Shown here: one piece after another, positions 3,001 through 64,000 of the stretch
How the letters are laid out: the number at the start of each line of letters is the position of its first letter
How positions within the stretch are numbered: position 1 is the stretch's first letter
DNA from: Camelus ferus
Lineage: Eukaryota
Reading direction: 5' to 3'
NCBI RefSeq assembly: GCF_009834535.1
Contig: NC_045696.1
Coordinates: 66,900,001 to 66,964,000 of the forward strand
DNA: 64,000 bases
Made by a program: the position numbers and the translations under genes
Notes under the pieces: model-generated
What the model saw: the letters and a program-made list of their open reading frames with translations, nothing else
Database searches by the model: none
What the model was told of the DNA's origin: nothing

Positions 3001-3593
3001 TCCCCTTTTAGTGCTAGGCAAATGTTTCTTCCTATAAACAGAAAGAAAATTCAGTAGCATCGTAAGTTTTTAAAAGTCAGATTTGTCAAAAGATGATGTT
3101 TGTTGTCAAACAAATCAAGAAGAAAATATGCCACAGAGCCAAAATGACAAGCCACAATCTGTTTGGTATAACAATGGCTATTTATCTATTTTTTAAGGAA
3201 GGGATGCATCAAAATTATTGTGTTTATTTTGGCAGGAAGAACCTCCACAGGCTAATCCATCCCCTGTCCAATGAAACGTCTTCTTCTTGGGTGGGTGAGG
3301 GCTGAGCCAGGCAAGTAACAGATTTTAAACATCTTAAAATGGTATGACAAGTTTTTTAAGAAACCATGGGAAGACTGTCTTCAAACTTTGTCACTTGGTA
3401 GATCCGGATAGGAACTAGAAAAGAACATTAGAAAAGATGCCCACAGACCACTTTAAGTCCACAGAAAGTCCAAAATAACATCACCGCGCTCATAAATGAG
3501 GAGAGGTTGCTCTTTGCACCAGGCAGAAGCACTCGTCATACACAAGGCACTCCGATTAAGCTTTGAGAGAAGTTACGTCACGTTTAAACTCAC
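1..3593 (-). other. TP63: Start of TP63 intron 1
   Basis: Follows the gtgagt donor. No exon 2 sequence (FVETPAHFSWKESYYRS) is seen in the window. Confidence 0.9.
2961..2980. repeat. (AC)10 microsatellite
   Basis: Directly visible. Confidence 0.95.
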
Positions 3594-3655
3594 CGCTGGA
3601 TGTAAGGGTCGGGACAGTACCGTAGGGTGGCACACCGTGAAGTTTCAAAATTCAT
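3594..3655 (-). CDS. TP63: Tumor protein p63, exon 1 coding part (TA*p63 N-terminus, 62 nt, phase-2 donor); the rest of the gene lies beyond the left edge of the window
   Basis: Minus strand reads ATG AAT TTT GAA ACT TCA CGG TGT GCC ACC CTA CGG TAC TGT CCC GAC CCT TAC ATC CAG CG|gtgagt = [21 protein letters not shown]. This matches the recalled human/mouse TA*p63 start [21 protein letters not shown] at 20 of 21 residues, with the expected 62-nt length and a canonical donor at 3588-3593. Confidence 0.97.
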
Positions 3656-3782
3656 TGCCTTCAACTCTCTTTGATATCAACAAGTGGAGAACAATTTTAT
3701 AACATATACACATCTACCTGTGTATATGTAGATATAGAGCCAGGAGGCTAAAAGCAATAGGGTCAAATGCTATCAGACATAG
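3656..3782 (-). other. TP63: 5' UTR of TP63 exon 1 (TA transcripts); TSS approximate
   Basis: CTATGTCTGATAGCATTTGACCCTATTGCTTTTAGCCTCC...GTTGATATCAAAGAGAGTTGAAGGCA-ATG closely resembles the recalled human TAp63 mRNA leader. Confidence 0.8.
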
Positions 3783-4330
3783 AAGTGTAGACAATTCCCC
3801 CCCTTCACACACAGTTGCCAAGAGGCGGAGCGTTTCTTGATTTGAGCCAATGAGATTCATCAAGTGACTAAAACATCAGAAACGGTTGAATCTTACCAGC
3901 TGGGCATCCTCTCTAACGTTGTTCTTTCCCTTCCACGACAGCTTTAGAGTCCTTGACGTATAGTGGCCACACTTGCTGGCAACTTGGAGTCATCTCTGAG
4001 CTTCTGGTCTCTCTGGTGATTGGATGCTGGCATGAATGGCATCAGAGTTTAATTTCAGCAGCCTGGACTTTCAGAACAGAGCAGAGCAGATGAGTGTTCA
4101 CCCTCTCCAGCTAATTAATGTTCCCTTGGATCTGCATGCTGATTTGATTTGACGACTTCTGTAACTGCTTCTGGAACTAAATATCTCACAGAGCTGCTTA
4201 GAGAGTTGTTTTGTTTTGCTGTTTTTTTTTTTTTTTTCATCTCCACCTTCACCCTCCCCTTTCCCCCCTTCATTCTCCCTTTCAGCCAACCGCCTGTTGT
4301 GGTCACAATCTCAAATAGCAAAGACAGGGA
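3783..4330 (-). promoter_or_regulatory. TP63: TP63 TA (P1) promoter region
   Basis: Repeat-free sequence directly upstream of exon 1. GC-box-like GAGGCGGAG at 3822-3830, CCAAT at 3847-3851 (inverted relative to the gene) and 4019-4023, CRE-like TGACGTA at 3954-3960. No CpG island. Confidence 0.75.
3897..3907 (-). CDS. TP63: Alternative upstream first exon of TP63 (coding part ATG CCC AGC TG, MPS[C]-, TA1-type isoform)
   Basis: AGG-ATG (A at -3) followed by a strong CTG|gtaaga donor at 3891-3896 in the same phase (2) as exon 1. Joining to exon 2 would give MPSC-FVETP. An MPSC N-terminus is recalled for rat TA1 p63/KET isoforms. Confidence 0.7.
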
Positions 4331-5447
4331 AATTCCTTGATTATATTTAACCTAGAACTCACTCTTCGTCTCAGCTAAAAGAGATACCCATTCACATCCC
4401 CTTAGAAGTTTTGCCTCCCCTAAATTAAAAAACAATAAGAATAACCTTTATTGAGGCTTTTAAAATATCCTACCTCAAACACACACACACAATTTCTTAA
4501 ACTAATATTAAAGTGGAAAATATACTATTTTACACTATTTTGAAACTTACAAAATTATTTCAAATTGTCTGTTACTGAAAACGTTTCATTTTCCTCTCTC
4601 TCAGTCCCTCTCACCCTCTTCTTTATGTCGTATTGTTTTTGCTGGTTTTGGTTTTGCTTTGGCTCAAGCTACTTTGGAGTAAAAACTGTTGTCTTTCGTA
4701 TATCTAAAAATTAATATAGTATCAAAAAAGTCTACATACAGAATAATTCACTTCCTTTATGAATACAAGCTGTAAACCTATCCTGGTTTTGTGGATTTGG
4801 AAATTGAATGAAATATGATTCAGAAGCTAAATTAAAATAGACTCCAACAGAAAAAAAAAACAAAACACAACCCTGTAAGTGTGCCCAAGTGTCACTAACA
4901 CGGCAAGTTCACATCCTCCACTCACCCCCCAATCACAGGTCACCTATAACCTGGTGACATCAGAAGTTGTCAAAGTTGTGAGATAATCTAAAGTCCTTTT
5001 CAGAGGAATTTGACATTTCCTTTTGAGAAATTTTGGTTCAAAATGCATCTCATAAAAATATTTTATTTGTTGCTTCAGCCAGGATAGAAAAGAGAAGCTA
5101 TTTAAAACCTGACATTCTCTTCCTTACTTAGCCTGAGAGTGTCTAACATCTGTGAATTGTGAAATTCACAAATATGCCGGCCTGAGCCCCAGCCAATTCA
5201 AACAGCTTGTTCTACAAAACGGGAAACTTGAGGGAAGATCATTTTACTAATTAATTATAGATTTGTTAATTGGAGTTAAAGTGTTTGGCTTTATTCCCTG
5301 CTATTGGCAAATACGGATGACCGGAGTATACAGCGTTCTTAAATTGAAAATGCTCCGTTTCCTTCGACCACGGCCAAGTTGTTCCATCACTCAGTGCCTT
5401 GCTTTTTCCCATTTGTACCACGAGAGGTGAGATCATGACCTCTAGTG

Positions 5448-11265: not shown

Positions 11266-12032
11266 AATGTGTAGATAAATGAGAAAATCAGTAACCTGTA
11301 TCAACATCAAGAGTAAGGAAAATAAGAGGAACCCAAGAACAATATTTTCACACAAAATGTATTTCATGATATTTTACACTGAGCTAAAGGGCCATTTGAC
11401 TGTGAACTTCTAAGCAGCCAATGTAAGGAGGACTTACATGCGATTTTCTAAATCTACAATAATAGCTTAGACTCTTGTTACAAATAGCGCATTGTTGGTA
11501 AAAAATGTGTGTTTGTTGAAAGAATACAGAAAAAAAGATAATATATAAAATACATTAACCCTCTGGTTTCTAAATTTAATGCATTTGTTTGGTTGCTGAT
11601 CACAAATAAATGACAACAGATGATATTGTAGTGAGACCTGAATTTCTAGTGGTTTCCAGTATAATCCTCTTTCAGGACTCTCTGGTACTTACTGATTTGA
11701 TGGTCAATTAATAGATTCAACATACATATTCCTTGAGGGCTTCTGCTGTGTGCCTGTCAGCTTGCTGGGTGCTGTGGGCAGCAAGTAGATCAATACGATC
11801 TAGTCTCTGCCCTCAAATAGCCCCCAGTAGAGTTGAAAATGACATTCTTTTCATTTTTGTATTTTAAGCCATGGAGAAAAAAATGACTCTTGCATAGCTG
11901 TGTCCCTGAGTTGCTGATGATCAACTTGCCTGCTGGGGTATCTGGTGCCTGGTAGATGCTAATGAGATAAGAATAGGTTTGCTAGAATTCGTGAAACCCG
12001 TGGGTAGGTGAAAGAGCATAGAATGTAACGTT

Positions 12033-12289
12033 CTTTTTTTTAATTGACATACAGTCAGTTACAATGTGTCAACTTCTGATGCACAGCATAAAGTCCCAGT
12101 CATGCATATATATATACACACACACATACACATATTTGTTTTCATATTCTTTTTCATTAAAGGTTATCACCAGATACTGAATATAGTTCCCTGTGCTATA
12201 CAGAAAAACTTAGTTTTAAAATCTATTTTTGTATATAATGGTTAACATTTGCAACTCTCGAACTCCCAAATTTATCCCTTCCCACCCCT
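12033..12289 (-). mobile_element. Younger 5'-truncated L1 (camelid/artiodactyl-type 3' end)
   Basis: Poly(T) then an antisense L1 3' UTR. 15-bp TSD GAATGTAACGTTCTT (12021-12035) / GAATGTAGCATTCTT (12290-12304). Confidence 0.85.
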
Positions 12290-47524: not shown

Positions 47525-47896
47525 AGTGAAAGAAGAAGAGATGGAGAAAGGAAGAATGATTAGGTGGACTGAGGAGCTAATGTATAACACAATGACTATA
47601 ATTGATAACACTGTATCATATAATTGAAATTTGTTGAAAGAGTGACCTTACCTGTTCTCACTAAATATATACGGTGATGAGTATGTTAATTACCTAAATG
47701 GGAAGAATTCTTTTATCCTGTATACCTTATATTAAATCATCATGTTATACACTTTAAATACCTTAGAATATTATCAATTACACTTCAATCATAGGAAAAT
47801 GAATATATCTATGAATATGCATGACTGGGCCATTGTGCTATATACCAGAGATTGACACATTGTAATTGACTGTACTTCAATTAAAAAAAAAAAAAA
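47525..47896 (+). mobile_element. Two tandem L1 3' ends (older L1MA-type, then younger camelid-type with poly(A))
   Basis: ...atgactataattgataacactgtatcatataattgaaatttg...; then ...gcatgactggg...acacattgtaattgactgtacttcaatt(A)14. Confidence 0.8.
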
Positions 47897-49565: not shown

Positions 49566-50133
49566 ATCAGAAAAGTACTCATCTTGTTCAGAAAGCTCTA
49601 GAATTACTTCCTCATCAGAGGCTTAATAAACTATCATCAAATGTCCCTGAATCCTTTAATAGGCAGGTTTATTCCATTTTTGCCTGAATAGTTAACTGTA
49701 TCATATAATCCTCTTTTTGAGAGACTCATAGTCTAGAATAGGATTCTATGAAATGAGTCAAGATAGGTTTGGATAAGTGCCATGAGAGGGATTTGTTTAA
49801 AGGTGTTACAGAGCTCCTGAGTAGGAAGGGAGTATTACCAGGCAAAAGTCCTGAAATGGTTCATGAATGATAAGATTTTAACCATGGAGAAGAGGGCAGA
49901 AGGTCTCTGAAGTGTGTATGCATAGTGGTACTGAGGTTGGAAGCACGTGTCATGTCGCGGAAGGACAGAGTTCCTATGTGACCTATACCCAGCATGGAGG
50001 AAGAAAAGGGGAAACTTGGTAGCTGAGACTGGAAAGAGAACAGTTCTTAGTTAGTCAGTTTTCTTCCAGAAAAAAAAAAAAAAAAAAAAAGTCTTTAGAA
50101 AGTGTGATAGAAAACAATTTTTTTTTAAAAAAA

Positions 50134-50211
50134 GGGGGAGAGTATAGCTCAGTGATAGAGTGCATGCCTAGCAAGCACAAGGTCCTAGGTTCAATCCCCA
50201 GTCCTCTCCAT

Positions 50212-50264
<53 letters not shown>

Positions 50265-61900: not shown

Positions 61901-64000
61901 TCGTTTTCTGTGATGTCTTACATGTTGGATAAAATTTGCCATGAAGGCATCTGAAACTAGAATGTAGTTGTGTGTGGGGCGGGGCGGGGGGGATGGTTTT
62001 CACTAGCAATTCAATCTGTTTTATTGAAAATTCAATAAATACATACATTTGATTTTTTTTTTAACTTCAGGTTAGGTAATATATTAAGGTTGTGCATTTC
62101 TCCTTGAGTGAGCTGTGGTAGCTTGTATTTCTCAAGGAATTCGTCCATGCCATCTAAGCTGTTGAATGTACTGGCATACGTAGTTCATAATAATACATCC
62201 TTCTTATCCTCTAAGTATCTGCCAGATCTGTAGTGATGGTATCTCTCATGTTCCTGATATTGGTAGTTTGTGTTTTTTCTCCTTTTTTTTTTTTTTCTGG
62301 CAAGTCTGGCTAGAGGTTTATATATTGTATTGATTTAAGAATCAATTTTTAAGGGGGTAGGGTATAGCTCAAGTGGTATAGTGCATGCTTAGCATGCACA
62401 GGGTCCTGGGTTCAATCCCCAGTACCTCCACTAAAAATAAATAAATAAGTAAAACCTAACCACCTCTCCCCACCAAAAAATATAATTGAAATAAATTTCA
62501 AAAGAATAAAATTTTTTTAAAAAATAATCAATTTTTAGTTTCATTAATTTCCCTATTTTATTATTTTTGTTTCATTGATTTCTGCTCTGATCTTGATTAT
62601 CTCCTTTCTTGTTCTTCCTTTGAAATTCATTTGCTCTTCCTTTTCTAGTTTCTTAAAGCTAACGCTGGGGCCATTGATTTGACATCTTTATCTTTCTTCT
62701 TTTACAATGTAGACGTTTGTGTTATAAAACACCACTACCAAGTATAGTTTAGTGTCATCTCACACATTTTAATATATTATGATTTCATTGTATTCAGTTG
62801 AAAATACTTCTTAATTTCTACTTTTATTTTTTCTTTGACCCACAGTTTATTTAGAAGTTTGACCCACAGTTCATTTAGTTTCTAAACGTTTTGGAATTTT
62901 CCAGAAGTCTTTCTGTTATTGATTTATCATTTAATTTTATGTGATCAGATTGCATACTTTGTATGACTTAAATCCTTCAAGGTTATTGATCCTTGTTTTA
63001 TGGCTAGAGTATGGTCTATCTTGGTAAGTGTTCCATTCATACTTAAAAAGAACATGTGTTCTGCTGTTGCTGTGTGGAGTGTTCTAGAAATGTTATTTTG
63101 GTCAAGTTGGCAGATAGTGTTACTCAAATAGTCTGTGTTCTTACTGACTGTCTGCTTATTTTATCCATTACTGAGGAGTGCAGTGATAACAACTATTTTA
63201 GTATTCTGTATATGTGTGATAATTCTATAGTCTCTGCCGCTTTGGGTCAGTTTTGATTGATTGGTTTTCCTTTCGTTATGAGTTGTATATTCTGGCTTCT
63301 TTGCTTGTCTTGAAATTTTTTATTGAAAAATTTACCTTGTTGGGTACTGGATGGTTTTGCATTCTTAAAAATAAACTTTGGCTTTGTTCTGATATGCAGT
63401 TAAGTTACGGGGAAACAATTTCATCTTCTTGGGTCTTACTTCTAAGCTTTGTTAAGTGGGACCTACACAGCATTCAGTCTGTTAATTTTTCCCCACTACT
63501 AAGGCAAGGCTCTTCTTAGTAGTCTTATATTCCCCTGAATTATGAGGATTTCCATCCTGCCTGCAGAGAACAGACACTATCTCCCCTTACAAGATTTAAT
63601 TACTTTCCCCTGTAATACTTTCAGATGTTTTCAACCCCTGGCTTCAAAAAGTTTCCCCATATGCATATGCTAATTAGTGCGCTGGTAAACGCTTGCCGGA
63701 AACCATCTGCACATCTTCAAAACTCTCTTCTCATGTAACCATTTTTACTCTGACATTCTGCCCCATGAACTCTAGCATCCTTGGTTTCCTCAGACTCCCA
63801 GTTCCATCTGCTCAACTCAGGGAGACCTCTGAGCTCTGCTTGGATCCCCTTTATTGCAATGCAGCCTGGAAACTCTCAGGGCAGTAAGCTGGGATAATTA
63901 CAGGGCTCACCCCATCTATTTCCTATCTCTCATCCATCACTGTTCTTCATTTCCTGACACCCAGTGTCTTGAGTGCCACTGTGTTATGTATTTTGTCTGT
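61900..64000 (-). mobile_element. Old L1 (ORF2 endonuclease region and 5' fragments), runs off the window
   Basis: ORF 62945-63127 NTICQLDQNNISRTLHTATAEHMFFLSMNGTLTKIDHTLA matches the L1 endonuclease (DIYRTLHPTTAEYTFFSSAHGTFSKIDH). Confidence 0.85.
62353..62525 (+). mobile_element. Vic-1-type camelid tRNA-derived SINE inserted in the L1
   Basis: GGGGGTAGGGTATAGCTCAAGTGGTATAGTGCATGCTTAGCATGCAC...GGTTCAATCCCCAGTACCTCC with perfect 12-bp TSD AATCAATTTTTA (62340-62351 / 62526-62537). Confidence 0.92.

Follow-up and report, generated by a model that had tools for sequence, protein, structure and literature searches.

Does the TA promoter region of TP63 in Camelus ferus hold a second coding first exon 5' of exon 1? 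The DNA analysed here, called the window below, is a 64,000-nucleotide stretch of the genome of this species. On the minus strand, the coding part of exon 1 occupies 3594..3655. It opens with the TA* start codon and comprises 20 codons followed by CG. Its end, at 3594, is of phase 2 and carries the donor GCG|GTGAGT (intron side GTGAGT, 3588..3593). At 20 of 21 residues, the TA* peptide encoded there is identical to two human TA* tryptic peptides detected by mass spectrometry (PMC6746776). Judged by this match, the gene is TP63 and the region is that of its TA promoter. Pfam and PDB returned no match to the exon-1 peptide, a short query of 21 residues. Two further ATGs are present on the minus strand ahead of the TA* start codon: the one at 3713, whose context is weak, starts an out-of-frame ORF of 22 codons (3713-3645) that crosses the TA* start codon, and the one at 3705 opens an ORF of 2 codons. 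Both could reduce the translation of TA* in this species.

The initial annotation had proposed, upstream of exon 1, a phase-matched first exon encoding an MPSC N-terminus, with a near-consensus donor some 250 nt 5' of the TA* start. All elements of this anatomy were found on the minus strand. The start codon occupies 3907-3905 and is flanked by A at -3 (3910) and C at +4. Its frame continues through the remaining codons of M-P-S to TG and the donor CTG|GTAAGA, so that the coding part of the upstream exon spans 3897..3907 and the intron side of the donor (GTAAGA) spans 3891..3896. With C at +4, the context of this start is adequate but falls short of the optimum. The TA* ATG (3655) lies 252 nt 3' of the upstream ATG, and the upstream exon has its own donor 5' of exon 1, with the exon end at 3897 located 242 nt 5' of the TA* ATG. 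The phase match also held: the upstream donor and the exon-1 donor are both of phase 2, so the upstream exon would be in frame when joined to exon 2. To complete the fourth residue, one base from exon 2 is needed; exon 2 falls outside the window, and this base was taken from human mutagenesis primers. In these primers codon 21 reads CGT (PMC6746776); exon 2 would then supply a T, and TG plus T would encode Cys. Left unspliced, the frame from 3907 reads M-P-S-W-stop. An unbroken frame from 3907 to the TA* ATG is ruled out by this stop at codon 5, and a longer upstream frame is ruled out as well, since the frames opened by the ATGs at 4042 and 4033, both in frame with 3907, terminate after 32 and 29 codons and do not reach 3907.

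We scored donors with an approximate weight matrix, which is not a published tool. On this scale the upstream donor reached 9.15 bits, a score equalled or exceeded by 42 of the 6566 GT sites on both strands of the window, and the exon-1 donor reached 9.68 bits (33/6566). The upstream donor ranks first among minus-strand donors from 4300 to the TA* ATG. For the chance level, a module was defined as an ATG with a purine at -3 whose frame reaches, free of stops and in phase 2, a donor of at least this strength. The controls were 251 tiles of 500 nt from the window, with minus-strand tiles overlapping 3400-4200 excluded, and 2000 dinucleotide shuffles of 4155-3656. Modules with an ATG-donor distance of up to 70 nt occurred in 8/251 tiles and 41/2000 shuffles; at a distance of up to 15 nt, the numbers fell to 1/251 and 17/2000. 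A donor of such strength, irrespective of the ATG, was found in 36/251 tiles and 303/2000 shuffles. The chance rate of the module is about 2-3% of 500-nt stretches. The module exceeds chance modestly; at this spot it is unlikely to have arisen by chance, but not decisively so.

Promoter-like elements are present 5' of the upstream exon. The CCAAT box reported earlier was located at 4019..4023 (minus), 116 nt from the upstream ATG when measured from 4023. As the window has about 0.7 CCAAT per kb on each strand, the box is weak evidence by itself, and we set it aside as independent proof. A weak TATA-like element, by consensus match only, lies at 3957..3962 (minus), 61 nt 3' of the CCAAT box and 55 nt 5' of the upstream ATG. 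If the element at 3962 places the start of transcription about 30 nt further on, then a short putative 5' leader would occupy 3908..3935 (minus), with the start near 3930-3935 and an exon about 35-40 nt long. The ATG at 3993 would lie outside such a transcript.

These data bear on the possibility that a donor-like 9-mer and a nearby ATG merely coincide in a promoter and are never used. We regard this as highly improbable, even though donors of such strength occur in 36 of the 251 tiles and the full module in 8 of them. The tight spacing recurred in a single tile, the module sits in the TP63 promoter at a fitting distance from CCAAT and TATA-like elements, and its predicted product agrees with a reported rat isoform. 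Upstream exons have moreover been published. A review (PMC3562299) describes three human ones, U1, U2 and U3, each joined to exon 2, and Beyer and Dobbelstein 2011 (Cell Cycle 10:1905) state a conserved upstream exon in non-hominids in their title.

Some other features of the region and of the window were recorded. An NF-kB-like site, GGAATTTCCC, is present at 4327-4336 (minus), about 430 nt 5' of the upstream ATG; TAp63 is an NF-kB target. Among the sixteen 500-nt bins of the first 8 kb of the window, 3501-4000 showed the highest CpG observed/expected ratio (0.55); with only 45% G+C, it is not a CpG island. Two related tRNA-like copies with A-rich tails lie on the plus strand at 50132-50233 and 62351-62453 and are 87.5% identical over 104 nt. 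Rfam reported the first of them as tRNA (41.9 bits), and ARAGORN reported none; both copies are SINE-like and appear to be tRNA-derived SINEs. An inverted pair of 79 nt (12031-12109 and 47815-47893, 83.5% identity) probably derives from an old interspersed repeat that is present twice.

The upstream donor may have two uses, joining exon 2 directly or joining an acceptor ahead of exon 1. Of 24 sequencing runs listed, 19 contain part of the window and none is listed as an RNA source, which speaks neither for nor against either use. The initial annotation stood as to anatomy, phase match and likely product, in which 4 exon-specific residues replace 21, but it overlooked the second splice route. 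The best candidate for a 3' splice site in the interval from the upstream donor to the TA* ATG is at 3748..3776 (minus), with a branch-like CTGAT, a pyrimidine fraction of 0.75 and a TAG ending at 3748; 143 of the 9048 AG sites of the window pass the same filter. Paired with the upstream donor, the candidate acceptor 3748|3747 would delimit an intron of 149 nt. In an mRNA joined at this acceptor, the upstream ATG would, as read from the genomic sequence, open a 14-codon uORF out of frame with TA*, and the stop codon of this uORF ends at 3714, which leaves 58 nt to the TA* ATG. Such a uORF-bearing mRNA would produce TA*p63, or TAp63 from Met40 by further scanning.

The same acceptor could also delimit a cassette. 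From 3748|3747 to a weaker donor (7.19 bits, among the top 165 of 6566) there are 30 nt, 3718..3747 (minus), which may speculatively be taken as a cassette exon. The segment 3747-3718 has no stop in the phase-2 frame, and its inclusion would keep phase 2 and add 10 codons in frame. A transcript that starts within 3718-3747 and uses the donor after 3718 would have no ATG before exon 2 and would yield plain TAp63 from Met40.

When joined to exon 2 directly, with exon 1 skipped, the upstream exon would give TAp63 with an N-terminal extension of 22 residues, compared to 39 in TA*p63. These would be 4 residues of its own and the 18 exon-2 residues common to TA* and GTAp63. The 18 residues hold a helper transactivation motif, and longer N-terminal extensions stabilise the closed dimer and add the p300-binding motifs Y18*/F22* and W31*/Y35* (both PMC6746776). 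The 22-residue form would retain W31*/Y35* and F22* but lose Y18*. Accordingly, its dimer stability and activity might fall between those of TAp63 and TA*p63. The string 'MPSC' had 0 occurrences in the papers listed by a literature search (20 of 22) and in the text and supplement of PMC6746776, and the isoform is not mentioned in sections 5-7 of PMC11551734.

The upstream exon might instead be real but serve as 5' UTR only: nearly always spliced to the 3747 acceptor, it would tune the translation of TA* and TAp63 through the uORF, with negligible MPSC protein outside rodents. We consider this unlikely. The good candidate acceptor 149 nt 3' is the nearest partner of the donor, and a protein of the expected length is absent from human Ensembl: none of the 14 TP63 transcripts of November 2023 (supplement of PMC11551734) encodes 663, 538 or 470 aa, the lengths expected with the upstream-exon N-terminus. 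The same 2024 review cautions that many p63 isoforms are PCR-level events. On the other hand, the phase of the ATG fits exon 2 exactly, as it would by chance in one case out of three, and a rat cDNA with such an N-terminus is reported. Skipping of exon 1 through an upstream exon joined to exon 2 is also documented (PMC6746776, PMC3562299).

A coding role could extend further. The upstream exon may be a major TA first exon in non-hominid oocytes or muscle and account for a hidden share of TAp63; together with the cassette, it would provide graded extensions of 0, 22, 32 and 39 residues that set the level of DNA damage at which p63 switches from dimer to tetramer. We think this quite unlikely. 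Were it so, the 22-residue form would have gone unseen because the antibodies in use cannot tell TA N-termini apart (PMC6746776).

The upstream-exon form would be of use in the study of TAp63 N-termini. The function and expression site of even TA*p63 are unknown according to a 2022 review (PMC9091270), and the 2019 biochemical study of N-terminal extensions (PMC6746776) did not mention the 22-residue form. As a natural variant with the exon-2 peptide only, the form would isolate the part played by the 18 shared residues in p300 binding and in the locking of the dimer. Where the TA* start codon is lost, the form could also provide a way around it; an example is the cleft-tongue family with c.3G>T, for which only Met40 was considered as an alternative start in the passages covered (PMC8821562).

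The remaining question is whether the upstream exon corresponds to one already described. It has probably been known from mouse, rat and human reports, with its protein under-studied. Murine U3 is reportedly located 5' of the known start and conserved in many mammals. A pattern for exon 1 had 0 matches in metagenome, genome and viral contigs, and one for the acceptor region had 0 in metagenome contigs; as these collections are not mammalian, the blanks carry no weight for conservation. U3 is said to splice into exon 1 or to exon 2, which gives two start sites, and to show no preference for testis. The exon in the window resembles U3 so described in lying 5' of exon 1 in a mammal and in the two start codons that would be possible; its donor might likewise join either an acceptor near exon 1 (the candidate 3748|3747) or exon 2. 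On this description and the local anatomy, we consider it likely that the upstream exon, as a short alternative first exon in the region of the TA promoter, is the orthologue of conserved TP63 exon U3. Camelus ferus was probably not among the species tested by RACE for U3. If the exon is U3, the finding extends the list of mammals with an intact copy by one and contributes little beyond that.

It is very unlikely, in our estimate, that the window contains a real coding first exon distinct from the published U3, separate and either unreported or reported from rat only, with U3 itself elsewhere upstream. The term 'exon U3' had 0 occurrences among the papers listed by the literature searches and the coordinates of U3 were not found there, which leaves some room for a separate exon. 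Against it, the description of U3, with splicing to exon 1 or exon 2 and two starts, closely fits the anatomy found here, and no donor on the minus strand from 4300 to the TA* ATG is stronger than that of the upstream exon.

Its identification as U3 can be compared with what is known of rat p63. The rat p63 UniProt entry reportedly contains an isoform with MPSC in place of residues 1-21, as the upstream exon would encode. We take the rat labels to be TA1 for the MPSC form and TA2 for the form of 680 aa. The window gives M-P-S-TG, which would fit the MPSC N-terminus reported for rat KET/p63 variants, for which the label TA1 is uncertain. PMC3886889 credits alternative TAp63 N-termini to Bamberger and Schmale 2001 (FEBS Lett 501:121) and equates 'TA1' with full-length TAp63, contrary to the rat label given above. 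The passages covered in PMC11853044, PMC4204435, PMC3185768, PMC10046157 and PMC5085097 yielded nothing on the upstream exon.

The probable U3 exon also resembles the first exon of GTAp63. In GTAp63, the LTR12-driven exon U1 is spliced to exon 2 in phase, so that exon 1 is left out and the 18 shared residues are retained (PMC6746776, PMC3562299, PMC9091270). GTAp63 differs in carrying 19 LTR-derived residues (PMC9091270) and in being hominid-only and testis-specific, whereas the exon in the window, at a distance of about 250 nt from exon 1, would contribute 4 residues. Its identity with exon U1 was rejected: it has 3 codons and 2 nt compared to 19 residues, and U1 derives from a hominid LTR. 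TA*p63, with its start in exon 1 and its 39-residue extension, has its first coding exon in the window at 3655-3594 and would share exon 2 with the upstream-exon form. Compared to TA*p63, the upstream-exon form would start at its own ATG and lack the 21 residues of exon 1, among them Y18*, which belongs to one helper motif.
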